Shown piece after piece: positions 2,321 to 35,341 of a stretch of 64,000 nt of DNA (position 1 is the stretch's first letter; each line of letters begins with the position of its first letter). The DNA is taken from the NCBI GenBank assembly GCA_947475005.1, contig CANJLI010000001.1:130819-194818 (forward strand). Reading direction: 5' to 3'. This stretch comes from Deltaproteobacteria bacterium (GTDB taxonomy: Bacteria; Bdellovibrionota_B; Oligoflexia; Oligoflexales; Bog-1112). The notes beneath the pieces are model-generated. The model did no database searches. It saw only the letters and a list, made by a program, of their open reading frames with translations, and was not told where the DNA came from. The translations under genes and the position numbers were made by a program.

Positions 2321-2343
2321 ATGCCCCCTCTTCTCGATTTCCC

Positions 2344-2911
2344 CTTTTCTTTTCTTTTCTTTTCTTTTCTTTTCTTTTCTGTGGAACCAGCTGCGCAGTT
2401 TCCACACCTCCTTGCCTCGCAATGGGAGAGCAGTGGGAGTCCTGTCGGCTACCATGTTAGATGCCAAGGCCGGCGCTCGCTCGGGGCCTCCCACCCTCTC
2501 AAAATCGCAGACAAAGTTTCCGTCATAGAAGCAGTTTCTCGGCTGCGATTTGTGACCCGGGTAGGTCCTCCCAAGCGGCTGCCCTTGGCCCCTCAAATGG
2601 TAACCGAAAGAAATCCCACTGCTCTCCCGTAGCTGCAAAGAGTTGGTAGCAGCGAGAGAACGGAAATGTATTTCCAGGATGACGCGCCAAGGGCAGCCGC
2701 TTGGGAGGACCTACCCGGGTCACAAATCGCAGCCGATGACTCACTGTCCATGACGAGAATACTGTCTGCGATTTTGAGAGGGTGGGAGGCCCCGAGCGAG
2801 CGCCGGCCTTGACGTGTCATTCTGGAAATACATTTCCGTTCTCCCATTGCGAGGCAAGGAGGTGTGGAAACTGCGCAGCTGGTTCCACAAAAGAAAGAAA
2901 GAAAGAAAGAA
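2344..2911. repeat. Foldback (near-perfect palindromic) element, copy A: core 2381-2888 with 48-bp perfect TIRs, flanked by (CTTTT)n and (GAAA)n microsatellites
   Basis: TIR-L 2381-2428 gtggaaccagctgcgcagtttccacacctccttgcctcgcaatgggag is the exact reverse complement of TIR-R 2841-2888. Internal modules C 2463-2512 / C' 2764-2813 and E 2540-2589 / E' 2686-2735 are (near-)perfect reverse complements. No credible ORF. Confidence 0.9.
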
Positions 2912-20515: not shown

Positions 20516-20538
20516 GTGGCATTTATCTTTTTTGATTA

Positions 20539-20661
20539 GAGATTGGGTCCACCTACCTTTTTAGGGGCCTTCACCTTTAGATTGGAGATTGGGTCCACCT
20601 ACCTTTTTAGGGGCCTTCACCTGTGGTGAAGGCCCCTAAAAAGGTAGGTGGACCCAATCTC
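20539..20661. repeat. 37-bp unit present three times (two direct, one inverted). Copies 2 and 3 form a perfect 37-bp hairpin with a 3-nt loop.
   Basis: gagattgggtccacctacctttttaggggccttcacc occurs at 20539-20575 and 20585-20621. Its exact reverse complement is at 20625-20661. Confidence 0.95.
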
Positions 20662-24765: not shown

Positions 24766-25992
24766 ATGAAAAAAACCATCTATCGATATTGTCTACTTCT
24801 TGCAATTTCTCCGTGTGCTTACAGCATCACCTTGCAGCAGGCGCAAGAGGCTGCTCTCGCCTCGAATGCAAAGCTGAAAAGTGCCGATAGCCTCTATGAA
24901 GCTGCGGAGAAAGAAAAACAAGCGAATCGGGCTGCCTTATTCCCTAAGCTTTCTGTTCAATATGAAAAAGTAAAAAACCAAGGCTCGGACAGCACGAGTG
25001 CGCAACAAAACTCCATGGTTGAAGTGCGAGCAGACATCAAAAATCCTTTTTCTCACCATGCCCTCCAAGGGGCACAGGATTTGGAGCAAAAAGATATTCA
25101 ACTTTCTAAAGAGGAGCAAAGAAACCAAATCCTACATAAGACCCGATTGGCATATTTTAAAGTGGGGTTGATTGATCTCCAACTCAATTATGCAAAAAAT
25201 ACTTTGCAATCTCGAAAAAAAGAACTCGACATCGTGAAGAGAAAAAGTGAAGGAAACCTGCTATCGTCCAATGACAAAGAACGGGTAGAGCGAGAGTTTA
25301 ACAAACAGAAGCAAAAGATAGATATCCTTGAGCTGAAGGTAGCTGCACAGTATGAAGTGATCGAACAGTACATTCAATATAAAGTAGACAGAAATACCCT
25401 GGAAACTCCATTTCCGACTACCTTTACGTTACCTGATCTCCCTCCCCAACAGAGAGGGGTTCCTATTTCTGCAAAGAAGATCGAAGTAGAACGCGAAAAG
25501 GGTCAAAATTTACTGTATCAAGAACGCATGAAGTGGACCCCCGATTTTTTTGGTTCTTATCAGAAGGGAAGAAGAGAAGGGGAGCTAGATACCGAAGCCT
25601 TCCTCCTGGGCTTTACGTGGAATGTATCTGCAGCACCGTATTTTAAACAAAGAGCCATTTCCTTTCGCATCCAATCTGCGGAGTTCTTATATGCCCAAGA
25701 AGTGCAGGATCAGAAAGATTTGGTTACCAAGGCATTTCAAGAGCTGAAAGAAACACTGGCTACCCTCAAAAGTCAGAAAGATATCATCTCATCCAGTGAA
25801 AAAATTGTGAAAGAAAGCCTTCGCCAGCATGACCTAGGCGGCATTCCCCTGCGAACCTATCAAGAAGACTTCGAAACCTGGACCCATGATTCGGAGCGTG
25901 AACTGGAGCTTCGCTACCAAGCGGTGGAAAAGTTAGCAGAGCTTTCGCTTCTCACAGAAGATGAACATCTGTTCTATAAAGGGCTGAAGTAA
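24766..25992 (+). CDS. Outer membrane efflux protein (TolC/OMF family)
   Basis: About 408 aa from MKKTIYRYCLLL (signal peptide). Coiled-coil-rich repeats. Third gene of the RND operon. Start moved to the ATG at 24766. Confidence 0.7.
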   Translation: MKKTIYRYCLLLAISPCAYSITLQQAQEAALASNAKLKSADSLYEAAEKEKQANRAALFPKLSVQYEKVKNQGSDSTSAQQNSMVEVRADIKNPFSHHALQGAQDLEQKDIQLSKEEQRNQILHKTRLAYFKVGLIDLQLNYAKNTLQSRKKELDIVKRKSEGNLLSSNDKERVEREFNKQKQKIDILELKVAAQYEVIEQYIQYKVDRNTLETPFPTTFTLPDLPPQQRGVPISAKKIEVEREKGQNLLYQERMKWTPDFFGSYQKGRREGELDTEAFLLGFTWNVSAAPYFKQRAISFRIQSAEFLYAQEVQDQKDLVTKAFQELKETLATLKSQKDIISSSEKIVKESLRQHDLGGIPLRTYQEDFETWTHDSERELELRYQAVEKLAELSLLTEDEHLFYKGLK

Positions 25993-26630
25993 TTTTCTTT
26001 TTCTTTTTCTTTTTCTTTTTCTTTTTCTTTTTCTTTTCTGGAAACCAGCTGCGCAGTTTTCCAGACCTTCCTTGCCTCGCAAGGGGAAATCGAGGATGTA
26101 TTTCCAGAACGACACGTCAAGGCCGGCGCTCGCTCGGGGCCTCCCACCCTCTCTCAATCGCAGAGCTAATCCTCGTCAGAGAATCTAGAACGTCCGCTGC
26201 GCTTTCGACCCGGGCAGGTCCCCCCAAGCGGCTGCCCTTGACGCGTCGTTCTGGAAACACATCTCCGATCTCTCGCTGCTACCAGATCTTTGCAGCTACG
26301 GGAGAGAGTGATTGGATTCCTTTCAGTTACCATTTGAGGGGCCAAGGGCAGCCGCTTGGGAGGACCTACCCGGGTCACAAATCGCAGCCTGGTTTTTACT
26401 GTCCATGACTAGAATACTATCTGCGATTTTGAGAGGGTGGGAGGCCCCGAGCGAGCGCCGGCCTTGGCATCTAACATGGTAACGGAACGGAATCCTATCT
26501 CTCTCCCATCGCGAGGCAAGGAGGTGTGGAAACTGCGCAGCTGGTTCCACAAAGAAAAGAAAAGAAAAGAAGAAAAGAAGAAAAGAAGAAAAGAAGAAAA
26601 GAAGAAAAGAAGAAAAGAAGAAAAGAAGAA
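25993..26630. repeat. Foldback element, copy B: core 26040-26550, flanked by (CTTTTT)n and (GAAAA)n(GAAGAAAA)n microsatellites
   Basis: TIR-R 26503-26550 differs from copy A TIR-R at a single position. The E'-D'-C' half (26341-26467) is near-identical to copy A 2686-2812. The left half is a degenerate complement. Begins 1 nt after the tolC-like stop and ends 1 nt before the rlmM-like stop. Confidence 0.9.
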
Positions 26631-26631
26631 A

Positions 26632-27567
26632 TTATTTTACAGGACGTGTCCACACCCATGTAAGCTCATGCTTGTTCTGACTGAGATGTCCAAGCCACCC
26701 ACCGGGAATCGCGAGAAAAGAATCGATGATTCCGTAATGCTCGCGTCCTTGGAACTTTAGCGTACAGACCGCATGCTGAATCGAAGAAGGCAAGACACTG
26801 GTACTCACCCACTCGTAGAGTTTTTCTGGATAACAAATCACATCACAGAACAACCAACTGGCCTCTGGGTACGCAGATAGATCCACGCGAAAGGCATCGG
26901 CTTCTACAAACTCCACTTCAGAGGCTTGCATAAGATCCTCCCGCAAAGGACTTCGATCAAAGGCTTTCACAGAGGCACCCAGTCGCTGCAGCACCCAGGT
27001 CCATCCTCCAGGAGACGCACCAAGATCGAGACAAACCTCTCCCTTCTGTGGGGCAACCCCAAGTCGAGTGAAGGCCTCCCAAAGTTTCAAATAGGCTCTG
27101 TTCGGAGGACCCAATCGGTCCTCTACAAATTCCCACTCTCCATTCGGTCGAGGACTCGTACACTGAGGCGACGCAAGCACACGATGATCATCGAGCAGTC
27201 TCCACGATCCCAACGGGGGATAGGTGGTAGGCTTTCCCGTAAACACGATGGGCTTGGCTCCAACATGGGGCAATGCTTTTTGGATATACGAAGCCCGACT
27301 TGATCCTGCTGGAAGGTAGGGCCACCAGCTGCGTTGCAAGGAAGTTAACGCCTTGGCACACTCTAAGATGGACTCAAACTGGATCTCATAGAGTTCGGAC
27401 CACTGATTGGCAGCCCAACGCGCAAGGAATGCATCCTCGATCTTGCCCCAAAACAGACGGTCCTGACGGGTGTACACCCGCCCTGCGAGTCGCTCTTCAA
27501 AGAGAGCTTCCAACCCGAGGGGAGCAAGATACGCAATTTGATTGTGGAGACGTTGAAGTTGGTACAA
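26632..27567 (-). CDS. SAM-dependent rRNA 2'-O-ribose methyltransferase, RlmM/FtsJ-like
   Basis: 311 aa. CLDLGASPGGWTWVL SAM-binding motif, then FCDVICYPEK and CTLKFQG, resembling the RlmM C-terminal catalytic domain. Confidence 0.6.
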   Translation of the reverse strand: MYQLQRLHNQIAYLAPLGLEALFEERLAGRVYTRQDRLFWGKIEDAFLARWAANQWSELYEIQFESILECAKALTSLQRSWWPYLPAGSSRASYIQKALPHVGAKPIVFTGKPTTYPPLGSWRLLDDHRVLASPQCTSPRPNGEWEFVEDRLGPPNRAYLKLWEAFTRLGVAPQKGEVCLDLGASPGGWTWVLQRLGASVKAFDRSPLREDLMQASEVEFVEADAFRVDLSAYPEASWLFCDVICYPEKLYEWVSTSVLPSSIQHAVCTLKFQGREHYGIIDSFLAIPGGWLGHLSQNKHELTWVWTRPVK

Positions 27568-32515: not shown

Positions 32516-33463
32516 ATGCTCGAACGACGCCAGCGCCCTAAGATTTCCAACAGCATTCTGGATACCATCGGCAACACCCCTCTCGTTCGTCTAACGAAGA
32601 TGGGTCGAGAATATCCGGTAGATATTCTCTTGAAGTTAGAATTTTTCAACCCTCTATCCAGCGTGAAAGATCGAATCGGACTTGCCATGATCGAAACCGC
32701 TGAAAACGAGGGGATCCTTACACCAGGGACAACGATCGTTGAGCCGACAAGTGGCAATACAGGGATTGCTTTGGCCTTTGTTGCGGCGCAAAAGGGGTAC
32801 CCTTTGATCCTCACCATGCCCGAAACCATGAGTATGGAGCGACGCAAGATGCTGAAGGCCCTAGGGGCTCAGCTGGTACTGACACCAGGTGACAAGGGTA
32901 TGAAGGGTGCCATTGCGAAGGCCGAAGAAATTAAAGCGGAGCACCCAGAATACTTCATGCCACAGCAATTCAAAAATCAGGCCAATGTACAGGTACACCA
33001 AGAAACCACAGCTCTTGAGATTTGGGACGATACCGATGGCAACGTAGACATGATCATTGCAGGCGTTGGCACAGGGGGATCGATCATCGGTACTGCCAGC
33101 GTCATCAAACAGCTCAAGCCAAGCTTTAAGGCAATTGCCGTCGAACCGAAAGATTCTCCCGTATTGTCGGGTGGCGCACCGGGGGCTCACAAAATTCAAG
33201 GGTTAGGTGCAGGATTTATACCTGAAATTATTGATGCCACACTGATTGATGAAATCATCCAAGTGTCCAACGAAGAATCAGGATACTGGGCACGCCGCCT
33301 TGCCAAAGAAGAGGGTATTTTTGCAGGGATCTCTTCCGGAGCCGCACTGGCTGCAGCTTTTCACGTAGCCAAACGAGCCGAAAACGAAGGCAAGCAAATT
33401 GTAGTCATGATTCCAAGCACAGGGGAACGATATCTCTCTACTTGGCTGTATGAGGAGGCTTGA
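32516..33463 (+). CDS. cysK: Cysteine synthase A (O-acetylserine sulfhydrylase)
   Basis: [19 protein letters not shown] (PLP lysine) and [12 protein letters not shown] motifs. AAGGAGA RBS upstream of the ATG at 32516. Confidence 0.9.
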
Positions 33464-33471
33464 ATCATCGA

Positions 33472-33558
33472 TCCTCAATAATTTCCATCTGCACACTGCG
33501 CTTTTCAACCCCTCCCAAAAAATGCCCAGCTGTAGCCATATAATTTTGGCGAGGGCCC
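33472..33558 (-). pseudogene. Orphan 3'-end fragment homologous to the C-terminus of the 34346-35341 gene
   Basis: 87 bp align without gaps to 34368-34454 with 13 mismatches counted by eye. In-frame translation ...NYMATAGHFLGGVEKRSVQMEIIEDR* versus ...NYTATAGHFLGEVEKRSAQTEIIEEIQSVLR* for the intact gene. Confidence 0.75.
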
Positions 33559-33671
33559 TACCATCTTTTGTCAATCACCAGATGTCATTATGACAAAAGG
33601 GAACCATTTATTATTGTTGGCCTTATATATTGCCATGGTAGAATCCATAGTATATACAATAGGAACAAAAA

Positions 33672-33938
33672 ATGCAATTTCAACTTACAAATACAGATGG
33701 AAAAATCGAAAAAATCCTGAAGGAAAGAGGCGTTAATCTTCTAGATATTAAGGAAAAATTAGACCAGGGAGATTGGCTGGCTGTATATAAACACCCCTCT
33801 CGAGACGAACAAATCATTTACGTTGTGGAAATAGATCATTATTGTTGGCTTGTTCCTGTTGTAAAGGAAGATCTTACAATCAAGACTGCTTTTCCATCTA
33901 GAAAAATGACAAAGAAATATGTAGGAAACAGACCATGA
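33672..33938 (+). CDS. Type II toxin, BrnT-like (small RNase-type toxin family)
   Basis: 88 aa. ATGA-overlapped with a BrnA/RHH-type antitoxin gene. AT-rich cassette. The family assignment of the toxin itself is tentative. Confidence 0.55.
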   Translation: MQFQLTNTDGKIEKILKERGVNLLDIKEKLDQGDWLAVYKHPSRDEQIIYVVEIDHYCWLVPVVKEDLTIKTAFPSRKMTKKYVGNRP

Positions 33939-34279
33939 AAAAGAAAAAAATGAACACCTCAATTCTCGTTGAGGGGGATGAAATAGCAAAATCATTTGAA
34001 AAAAACCATGAGGCTTGGGAGAGCGTTTCTCAAGAAGAACAAGATGAACTTAGAAAACGCCTTCGGCCTTCACGAGAAAAAAGAATTTCAATTCGAATTT
34101 CTACTGAGGTGCTACATAAAATTCAAGAAATCGCAGATGCAGAAGGTATGCCGTACCAAACCCTTATTAACAGCCACCTTCATAAGCTAGCTACAGCGAA
34201 ATCTGACTTTGATGCATTAGAAAAAAAAGTAAAATTCTTATCGGAAGAAATCACAGAAATAAAAAGGAAGATTGCCTAG
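33935..34279 (+). CDS. BrnA-like antitoxin (CopG/RHH DNA-binding)
   Basis: 114 aa. C-terminal RISIRISTEVLHKIQEIADAEGMPYQTLINSHLHKLA matches the BrnA/COG3514-type ribbon-helix-helix signature. Confidence 0.7.
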   Translation: MKKKKMNTSILVEGDEIAKSFEKNHEAWESVSQEEQDELRKRLRPSREKRISIRISTEVLHKIQEIADAEGMPYQTLINSHLHKLATAKSDFDALEKKVKFLSEEITEIKRKIA

Positions 34280-34345
34280 TAACGGGTGGATGATTTCCTC
34301 TGTTCGTCATCCCTCGCTGTAGCGAAGGATCTCCCAACGTGGAGA

Positions 34346-35341
34346 TCATCGCAATACAGACTGGATCTCCTCGATAATCTCCGTCTGTGCACTGCGCTTT
34401 TCCACCTCTCCCAAAAAATGCCCAGCTGTAGCCGTGTAATTTCGGTGTGTGCCCTCAATGTAGGCCACTTGTGCCCAAGTAGGGAGATTGATAAAAACAA
34501 AAGCCAAGTAAGAGATATCGGCCTCCATTAGCTTTGCCAACACTTTCTTAGCTCCTTCGGACAATGCAGTGGTACGAGAGACTGCATAGTAGAACAGGAT
34601 ATCCACTTGAGAACCTACGATGGGCATCGGATGGGTTACCAAATGTTCAAAAATCCGAGAGCAAGTCAACAAATCCACATGCACCAAATTGAGCTGACGC
34701 AATTCCTCAGGAGAAGCCAATGCGAGATAGCTCAAAAAATCCTCTGCTGCACGACTTGGCATCAGCGTAGCCATGGCCTCTGCAAAGGCTGGGTGATGCA
34801 CGGTAAACAGCCCCTTCTTTACAATCGTGTACGCAGTAACAAGCCGATTGCTTGCTACCGCTTGTGCCATCTCTGGAAATAGATCATCGGACAAAGTGTC
34901 CTCTTTCAAATCTTCTGTCAGCCTACGATCGATTTCCTTTGCCATCAAATCTCCCGGCAACGATGCTGCCAAACGCCAGGCCAGCCGTTGTGCATGGGGG
35001 CGCTCACTTCGCACCAAAATCGCAAAGAGCTTATGCGGCTCTGCATGATTGAGGCTTTGATACAATCGCATCGCATTCACCAAACTATTAGCGGGCCACA
35101 GCAAAAAATTCTTTCCAATCAAATGAAACAATTCATTTCCAGCTTGGGTTTTCTCTTTTCGCTTCTGCAGCAAACGCCTTACATGCTCCAAGGTTTCATC
35201 CCCAAAGGTAATCGCAGCTTCCAATGCTTCCGCTCGGGGCATGGCAGAGGTGATGACGGGTGGTTTTTTCTCTTCGGATTGAAAAGAAACACACTGGGTC
35301 AAAAAAGCCGACATAATTGCAACTGCGAAAACTCTTTTCAT
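34346..35341 (-). CDS. Hypothetical lipoprotein (alpha-helical)
   Basis: 331 aa. Signal peptide with lipobox-like LTQC. 4-nt overlap with the upstream 139-aa gene. Confidence 0.5.
   Translation of the reverse strand: MKRVFAVAIMSAFLTQCVSFQSEEKKPPVITSAMPRAEALEAAITFGDETLEHVRRLLQKRKEKTQAGNELFHLIGKNFLLWPANSLVNAMRLYQSLNHAEPHKLFAILVRSERPHAQRLAWRLAASLPGDLMAKEIDRRLTEDLKEDTLSDDLFPEMAQAVASNRLVTAYTIVKKGLFTVHHPAFAEAMATLMPSRAAEDFLSYLALASPEELRQLNLVHVDLLTCSRIFEHLVTHPMPIVGSQVDILFYYAVSRTTALSEGAKKVLAKLMEADISYLAFVFINLPTWAQVAYIEGTHRNYTATAGHFLGEVEKRSAQTEIIEEIQSVLR

Follow-up and report, generated by a model that had tools for sequence, protein, structure and literature searches.

REPs are found mainly downstream of genes, in the gaps between unidirectional or convergent ORFs, and a retention bias is known for them (PMC3733652). 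REPINs combine conserved ends with variable spacers that carry compensatory changes, and they fold into hairpins (PMC3116915). Among the bacterial MITEs, those compared here are Correia/NEMIS, ERIC, RUP, BOX and the Coxiella QMITEs (PMC10969869, PMC3184786). The ends of IS200/IS605-type elements and of PATEs undergo single-strand transposition guided by subterminal hairpins (PMC6006769). The repeat described here lies in a 64,000-nt stretch of a contig from a Deltaproteobacteria bacterium of the Oligoflexales, hereafter the window. It is a non-coding palindromic repeat of about 0.6 kb, present in at least two copies, those of the window being termed copy A and copy B in the order of their coordinates.

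Copy B fills the entire gap, from 25993 to 26631, between a TolC-like and an RlmM-like gene (Table 1). The TAA stop of the TolC-like gene ends at 25992 and the pyrimidine tract of the element begins at the next base; at the other side, the stop of the RlmM-like gene occupies 26632-26634, immediately past the end of the purine tract. The initial annotation had described the copy as flush with both stop codons, and the contact is real, but it is the microsatellite tails that establish it and not the core at 26040-26550. This core of 511 nt has a GC content of 57% vs 43% for the window, and its central spacer F and the neighbouring bases of the X arms contain GTAGC/GCTAC motifs. Among named sequences, the RlmM-like protein is closest to proteins of MAGs assigned to Oligoflexales and Bdellovibrionota, with which it shares about 50% identity.

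Table 1. Position of the two copies, their parts and the genes flanking copy B (window coordinates; CM, covariance model)
Feature	Position	Strand	Evidence and remarks
Copy A pyrimidine tail, including (CTTTT)7	2336..2381	+	TRF, composition
Copy A core	2382..2887	+	Pattern search, alignment, folding, CM
Copy A first TIR	2382..2429		
Copy A X1 unit	2430..2633		
Copy A spacer F	2634..2648		
Copy A X2 unit	2649..2839	- sense	
Copy A second TIR	2840..2887		
Copy A purine tail (AAAG)n	2888..2911	+	Composition
TolC-like outer-membrane channel gene	24766..25992	+	ORF list, NCBIfam TolC matches, same call in contigs L003/L033
Copy B pyrimidine tail (TTTTCT)7.5, no G, no A	25993..26039	+	TRF, composition; repeat perfect at 25993-26037
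Copy B TIR, diverged arm (A')	26040..26089	+	Pattern search, module mapping; 78% identity to copy A arm
Copy B X2-type hairpin unit	26090..26279	+ sense	Four-half alignment, alifold/pair counts, CM 140 bits
X2	26090..26117		
C	26118..26166		
E	26167..26195		
D	26196..26248		
X2'	26249..26279		
Copy B central spacer F, doublet axis	26280..26294	.	Alignment, module mapping, sequence
Copy B X1-type hairpin unit	26295..26501	- sense	Four-half alignment, pair counts, CM 158 bits
X1'	26295..26338		
D	26339..26388		
E	26389..26418		
C	26419..26466		
X1	26467..26501		
Copy B TIR, well-kept arm	26502..26550	+	Pattern search, alignment, mapping; 47/48 identical to copy A
Copy B purine tail (AAGAAAAG)~10, no C, no T	26551..26631	+	TRF, composition; repeat spans 26552-26631
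RlmM-like FtsJ-type rRNA methyltransferase gene	26632..27567	-	ORF list, homology matches

Four matches to the terminal motif TGGAACCAGCTGCGCAGTTTCCA are present in the window, where none would be expected, and they bound a second element, copy A, in agreement with the earlier statement that the foldback element is repeated. With its tails copy A extends from 2336 to 2911, between a gene for a 92-aa Lys/Ala-rich histone-H1-like protein (+ strand) and an uncharacterised 311-aa gene (- strand), which converge on it and are unrelated to the genes flanking copy B. This copy had also been reported as flush with its neighbours; in fact, 43 nt plus a terminator hairpin separate it from one stop codon and 4 nt from the other. 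Copy A on the + strand aligns end to end with the - strand of copy B at 84-86% identity vs 75% with the + strand, and copy B is thus the reverse complement of the whole copy A element, in keeping with the module order given in the initial annotation. The opposite interior order described there is uninformative: the two loci are unrelated and the TIRs of copy A are 48/48 identical/complementary, so that a flip of the whole element accounts for the order and no interior inversion is needed. In copy B one TIR arm has diverged.

The repeat units differ in all four tails (5, 4, 6 and 8 nt). CTTCTC brackets copy A at 2330-2335 and 2912-2917, which is weak as a target-site duplication in such a pyrimidine-rich context, and no target-site duplication was found at the edges of copy B. 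A TA duplication of the IS630-like type was considered and rejected, since it would fit copy B only if the insertion had made the stop codons, and copy A does not fit.

Alignment of the four half-elements reveals one plan in all of them: TIR A (48 nt), X, C, E, D and X'. Each element contains two hairpin units, about 190-210 nt long and inverted with respect to each other, on either side of a short spacer. It has 48-nt TIRs at its ends and reads pyrimidine tail, TIR, two inverted hairpin units around F, second TIR and purine tail. One half of each element bears an X stem of type 1 (B/B' in the initial annotation) and the other half a stem of type 2 (G/G'). Each half alone folds into an X:X' stem, imperfect C:D core helices and a loop E in which CGTCA is present, the unit hairpin containing several helices and internal loops. 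The two units together can form a rod of about 500 nt, which is the predicted thermodynamic optimum: for copy A, -396 kcal/mol vs -308 kcal/mol for the two-unit fold as RNA, and -237 vs -168 as DNA. The core of copy B has an RNA MFE of -322 to -332 kcal/mol as a near-continuous rod, z being -21 to -22 relative to dinucleotide-shuffled sequences, and folding of the elements lies far above chance in general (z = -21 to -34). In the rod, C and D of one half pair with C' and D' of the other, and X1 remains unpaired opposite X2'. Complementarity between the X arms is explained by the unit hairpin alone and not by the rod.

Compensatory changes maintain the unit hairpin. In the X stem, X1 and X2 differ at both bases in 16 of the 26 pairs, and 88.5% of the cells are paired over the four halves. 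Over the whole structure the four halves give 93.9% paired cells, vs 36-49% after a shift of the partners by 1-3 columns, and none of 500 shuffles reached the observed pairing score. Two further units, making six in total, were taken from contigs of other samples, L034 and L038. In the part of L034 that is alien to the window copies, the middle of C and D is rewritten and 9 of the 14 helix pairs are doubly changed, yet they are still Watson-Crick; if bases were independent, we estimate that nine pairs would be kept by chance with a probability of about 0.375^9, or about 1e-4. A constraint acting on the rod only would not couple C to D inside one half, and it is for this reason that the L034 variant is informative. 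With all six units, the L034 variant included, 96% of the cells in the whole structure are paired (34-49% in the slid controls; 0/500 shuffles match). The feet of the helices are invariant in the six units, CAAGG-CCGGC with GCTG-CCTTG and AATCGCAG with CTGCGATT, and G:U pairs are kept in the sense strand of the unit, as in columns 60/169 of all six sequences. Compensation alone is no proof of a DNA-level substrate, since selection on RNA structure or template switching at quasi-palindromes would also yield it.

The strong covariation in the X:X' and C:D helices, the G:U pairs conserved on the sense strand of the unit and the directional scores of the C-E-D covariance model (140-158 bits sense, 16-31 bits antisense) are what would be seen if the repeat were a family of large structured ncRNA genes, with the hairpin unit as a functional RNA under RNA-level selection. 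We regard this as improbable on several grounds. Searches against Rfam gave no match at gathering score in the whole window, and only sub-threshold chance matches for copy A at a permissive E-value. No promoter-like site was found inside or beside either copy. With one unit per strand, every transcript would hold one sense and one antisense unit. Finally, the element is absent from the orthologous sites and from all the loci of relatives searched with the model, and its multi-copy, mosaic modules are typical of mobile DNA.

The two copies have not diverged uniformly. Between copy A (+) and copy B (-), identity in the first half is 0.98 in A, 0.74 in X1, 0.98 in C, 0.50 in E, 1.00 in D and 0.82 in X1'; it is 0.87 in F and, along the second half, 0.87 in X2, 0.87 in D', 0.52 in E', 0.92 in C', 0.82 in X2' and 0.78 in A'. 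Heterogeneity over the 13 modules is significant (chi-square p = 6e-12), and the differences in A, C and D taken together amount to 2/146 nt in the X1 half and 22/153 in the X2 half (Fisher p = 2e-5). The single difference formerly counted in the 48-nt right TIR was recovered, whereas module E', which had been called almost identical between copies, reaches no more than 75%, and about 50% when the homologous modules are aligned. Module-specific conservation, as first proposed, is supported, and selection or templated correction is needed to produce it; selection for a host function is not implied by it, as the selection need not serve the host, and selection for mobility-competent masters or hairpin-templated correction would give the same pattern.

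The mismatches that the initial annotation had ascribed to accumulation in the left half of copy B include the stretch quoted there, which is present, but much of this divergence is common to the alien part of L038. The alien unit of that contig has most of the odd states of the copy B left half (TCTCTCAATCG in core C, GCGCTTT-CGA in core D) and matches it at 28/31 positions of the E loop. The left half of copy B is thus largely an inherited subtype with few private substitutions, and its divergence is not solely the result of decay in place. The whole pattern matches that expected if the copies derived from different active masters, with the parts needed for propagation fixed, the stems compensated and the loops drifting, and REPINs behave alike in this respect (PMC3116915). 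The E module of the copy B X1 unit resembles E of the copy A X2 unit (24/32 identities, 75%, against 18/33, 55%); a swap of E modules between halves was considered and discarded as an explanation.

The source species is found in contigs from about a dozen sequencing samples, and several of these contigs end inside the element (L004, L006, L019, L021, L034-L036 and L038). Contig L036 has one extra TTTTCT unit, and the tails presumably change length by slippage. Over 2.9 kb, contig L019 departs from the window only by seven substitutions clustered in the E loop, at 2515-2536, and L035 has 11 substitutions clustered in one X1 arm. The modules that are hypervariable among strains, E and X, are those that diverged between the copies. 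Contigs L034 and L038, the latter from an NCBI MAG, change at the conserved D core into other variants of the family, and these switches may be either true recombinants or assembly chimeras. In either case, more than two variants of the element exist. Complete copies number two, the other variants (L034, L035, L038 and L019) being known from contigs of other samples whose ends are possibly chimeric.

That metagenome contigs often break or turn chimeric at the element might suggest an assembly artefact, or a chance palindrome. The probability of this is practically negligible, as independent assemblies recover the same sequence, the element being found whole or from both sides in ENA MEGAHIT contigs, in Logan and in MAG GCA_947467855.1; besides, the four matches of the TIR pattern against none expected and fold z-scores below -21 are not those of a chance palindrome.

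The initial annotation had also raised an inversion between the TIRs. A site-specific invertible DNA switch, in which the segment enclosed by the TIRs or by the inner inverted repeats would change orientation, could use the long inverted repeats present in the elements (A/A' 48 nt, C/C' about 65 nt, D/D' about 57 nt), and the opposite + strand order of the copies, the sequence change at the D core in some contigs and the E module of the copy B X1 unit, whose resemblance to that of the copy A X2 unit hints at an exchange between halves, could be read in the same manner. Nevertheless, such a switch is very improbable. Opposite order at unrelated loci is mere orientation of insertion, and the eight contigs in which a flanking gene leads into the element, which stem from at least five samples, all keep the orientation of the window (the count refers to contigs, not reads). 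The sequence that follows the switch in L034 and L038 is that of new variants and not of the same copy inverted; an origin of L038 by inversion of the interior between D and D' was rejected because the sequence after D belongs to another variant instead of being copy A X1 in reverse complement. An inversion between C and C' or D and D' would moreover unpair X from X', and all complete units keep matched X arms. Finally, the window contains no recombinase gene and the element no promoter-like site.

Related genomes provide empty sites for both copies. In a relative with 84% protein identity (L012/L013), the gene order is the same and the rlmM-like and tolC-like genes lie 5 nt apart; an ancestral spacer of 5 nt suffices to explain why copy B lies flush against both stop codons. 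At the site of copy A, relatives (L026, L028-L032) have a spacer of 70-78 nt with a small terminator-like hairpin. No trace of the element was detected in these loci by BLAST or with the covariance model. Judged by these sites, the element is an insertion relative to the related genomes. The exact target site is not recoverable from the empty sites, as the relatives are too diverged for base-by-base alignment.

Both copies sit between convergent 3' ends, as was first claimed, and the chance probability that both would be at convergent junctions, among about 50 junctions, is about 0.014. The preference for such sites deduced in the initial annotation concerns two copies, at two of the six convergent junctions in the window. 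This number does not separate targeting from retention, and a retention bias explains the placement equally.

The same placement is what a host cis-acting 3' element would show, that is, a bidirectional transcription barrier or a protector of mRNA 3' ends between convergent genes. Past each stop codon, the transcript would contain a G-free, C-containing pyrimidine tract resembling a Rho-loading site, followed by a very stable hairpin that could cause pausing or block exonucleases. Both copies lie exactly at convergent 3' ends, and copy B is the sole intergenic DNA between genes whose orthologues lie 5 nt apart in a relative. On both strands the tails read as a pyrimidine tract 5' of the hairpin, with no G on the transcript side in copy B and one or two in copy A, and the stability of the fold is extreme. 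In addition, terminator activity or mRNA stabilisation has been described for REPs and MITEs (PMC3733652, PMC10969869). On the other hand, the relatives do without the element at both loci, as do the other four convergent junctions of the window, and copy A already lies downstream of a terminator-like hairpin. An intrinsic (Rho-independent) terminator was discarded: on both strands the order is U-rich tract, hairpin and then purine tract, and a terminator scan found none inside the element. The conserved doublet architecture and the TIRs would also be left unexplained. We consider it rather unlikely that such a host function is the reason for the element, although a barrier role could coexist with a selfish origin.

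Searches outside the two loci returned little. The invariant 20-mer of core C gave single 21-nt chance matches in the GTDB genomes and in the JGI metagenomes, but no match in IMG/VR, and the 18-mer of core D single chance matches in IMG/VR. Neither PLSDB plasmids nor GenBank phages contain a match to the element by blastn. The reading frames of the element are not conserved, and a six-frame query yielded no protein homologue among 5.8 billion. No extra copy lies in the 10 kb past each end of the window, and the C-E-D covariance model, run over 260 kb including relatives, matches known copies only. Copies thus number two per 84 kb, plus at least two to three further variants at contig ends. The genes found in the window are all housekeeping (lipid A, BAM, Lol, ccm, RND efflux, methyltransferases and polysaccharide synthesis), with no transposase or recombinase gene in the 64 kb or in a further 20 kb of the same contig, and no RAYT (Y1/HUH) gene in these roughly 84 kb. 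An autonomous IS with matching ends was not found, the core having been compared with GTDB, JGI, IMG/VR, plasmids and phages and the TIR with the window. Since the core is absent from those databases, neither an autonomous partner nor a wider family is known.

We propose, with a probability of about 0.6, that the repeat is a lineage-specific, non-coding and non-autonomous mobile element of REPIN/MITE-like type, which has spread or been duplicated in the genome and is retained at 3' ends. In the model, the long-hairpin doublet together with its TIRs and tails would be the replicative unit, and both tails, pyrimidine and purine, would belong to the inserted DNA. The unit hairpins would be exposed as ssDNA at replication or as a cruciform, and the folded units would be the substrate of a trans-acting enzyme encoded elsewhere, for which an HUH/RAYT-like structure-specific transposase is the obvious candidate. 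Such an enzyme would account for the compensatory maintenance of the structure and for the unchanged sequence of the invariant helix feet (CAAGGCCGGC / GCTGCCCTTG and AATCGCAG / CTGCGATT) and of the TIRs. Copies would persist where they are harmless, in the 3' space between convergent genes, insertions elsewhere being harmful. Once in place, the element would probably also act, secondarily, as a block to read-through from one convergent gene into the other. A more far-reaching version of this proposal, in which the repeat represents an undescribed class of mobile DNA, appears doubtful. It would comprise a hairpin doublet of 0.5-0.64 kb copied by a structure-specific ssDNA enzyme, with units of about 200 nt kept by compensation, self-grown tails, switching between the rod and the two-hairpin or cruciform forms, and a bidirectional Rho-type barrier.

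Should the mobile-element reading be true, REPIN-like replicators would not be limited to REP hairpins of 20-40 nt and Proteobacteria-type RAYT systems, and an uncultured Bdellovibrionota-like lineage would have one that is far larger and hierarchically palindromic. The repeat is also a clean natural instance of a DNA element with strong covariation, and as such a warning to screens for RNA structure, which could misread it as a structured RNA. In addition, the element breaks metagenome assemblies and may yield chimeric contigs in public MAGs. The arrangement of G-poor pyrimidine tails and a giant hairpin after stop codons suggests a model in which a barrier between convergent genes may be selfish DNA that the host tolerates or has co-opted. 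No new principle emerges from the analysis, but the structure is distinctive and well supported, and the lineage that has it is unstudied.

Of the known systems, the element shares with REPINs and REP-BIMEs the two palindromic units inverted around a spacer, the doublet of which can fold into a larger hairpin, and the alternation of conserved with variable parts in which pairing is kept by compensation (16 + 9 doubly changed pairs). Like REPINs, it is extragenic, non-coding and lineage-specific, and located downstream of genes, a site that for REPINs is often between convergent ORFs. GTAGC at the inner foot of both units, across spacer F and the neighbouring parts of the X arms, and CGTCA in loop E may at most recall the unpaired GTAG or CGTC tag of REPs, as their position and polarity are not clearly REP-like. 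The size is different: REP units have 20-40 nt and the units described here about 190-210 nt, and the whole element, at 0.5-0.64 kb, is roughly five times as large as a REPIN of about 70-110 nt. Also unlike those of REPINs, the two units of the element differ in stem type (X1 or X2) and are enclosed by 48-nt TIRs and by pyrimidine/purine microsatellite tails; no RAYT gene was found in the surrounding 84 kb or so, and the copy number is apparently low. With MITEs it has in common the TIRs, the lack of coding capacity, a length below 1 kb, intergenic location, stable folds, presence or absence between related genomes and, as in BOX, a modular mosaic make-up. It departs from them in the absence of a demonstrable target-site duplication and of a parent IS with matching ends, in a GC content above that of its surroundings and in its interior, which is not a deleted transposase gene but a conserved pair of covarying hairpin units. 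As in IS200/IS605 elements and PATEs, conserved DNA hairpins rather than long identity define the element, and no target-site duplication is expected; in those systems, however, the hairpins are short and subterminal and the ends asymmetric, whereas the present element is symmetric, with hairpins of about 200 nt, and has no Y1 transposase or TnpB gene nearby. Given that its units exceed the size of REPs and that it has neither a demonstrable target-site duplication nor a known parent IS, we assign it to neither the REPIN nor the MITE family. What is unusual about it is the length and covariation of its hairpin units, the presence of two stem types in each element and the pyrimidine/purine microsatellite tails.

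Within the empty copy A site of three contigs from relatives, which keep the gene order and lack the element (Table), an inverted repeat, ATTTCCCCCTTA ... TAAGGGGGAAAT, is conserved; it has the appearance of a bidirectional terminator. The minus-strand sequence adjoining the tail of copy A in the window, GGGGAAAT, is similar to the right arm of this repeat, so that insertion of copy A may have split or replaced the terminator-like hairpin.

Beside copy A lies a gene for a histone-H1-like protein of 92 aa, rich in Lys, Ala and Arg and without match in Pfam or NCBIfam. Tandem repeats of 27 and 39 nt make up nearly all of its coding sequence; an 88-aa gene takes its place in the relatives, and in some samples the gene is another break point of contigs.

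Several contigs from other samples read into the elements from the flanking genes. L019, which carries a strain variant of copy A, matches the window exactly across 2.9 kb save for seven substitutions, all grouped within the 22-nt E loop, a distribution suggestive of patch gene conversion or template switching. In the copy B variant L035, from another sample, 11 substitutions are grouped within a single arm of the X1 stem, and the sequence to either side of them is identical; the contig ends before the partner arm. The public contigs L038 and L034, one of them from NCBI MAG GCA_947467855.1, change to a different family member at the conserved D core; these switches are either recombinant alleles or repeat-induced chimeric assemblies.

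Features and their coordinates (window positions unless a contig is named)
Feature	Position	Strand	Assignment
Empty copy A site	L026:1057-1126; L028:10955-11032; L030:5626-5700
Histone-H1-like gene	2014-2292
E-loop substitutions	L019:364-385 (= 2515-2536)
X1-arm substitutions	L035:4522-4565 (= ~26300-26340)
Family-member switches	L038:4158-4467; L034:4469-4700
Tandem and inverted repeat	20530-20661
AT-rich island	33463-34346
Small ORF in island	33672-33938	+	no family match
Small ORF in island	33935-34279	+	CopG/BrnA-type antitoxin (Pfam)
88-nt direct repeat	33472-33559; 34368-34455
Gene duplicated at 3' end	34346-35341	-
GTAGC and GCTAC	26280-26300; 2630-2657

Elsewhere, a thioredoxin-like gene of the ccm cluster and an HlyD-like gene flank a tandem pair of a 46-nt unit (96%), which is followed by an inverted, perfectly complementary copy of the unit's 37-nt core, GAGATTGGGTCCACCTACCTTTTTAGGGGCCTTCACC; none of the retrieved loci was found to carry this repeat. 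Another convergent junction is occupied by an AT-rich island of ~0.9 kb, which holds two small ORFs and looks like a toxin-antitoxin cassette. A direct repeat of 88 nt (85%), a duplication of the 3' end of a neighbouring gene, brackets the island.

GTAGC and GCTAC occur in spacer F, the short central axis between the two hairpin units, together with adjacent X-arm bases (GTAGCTAC, in two variants), at the inner foot of both units; CGTCA is retained in the E loops. The two REP superfamilies have GTAG and CGTC as their tags (PMC3733652); the match may be a coincidence.
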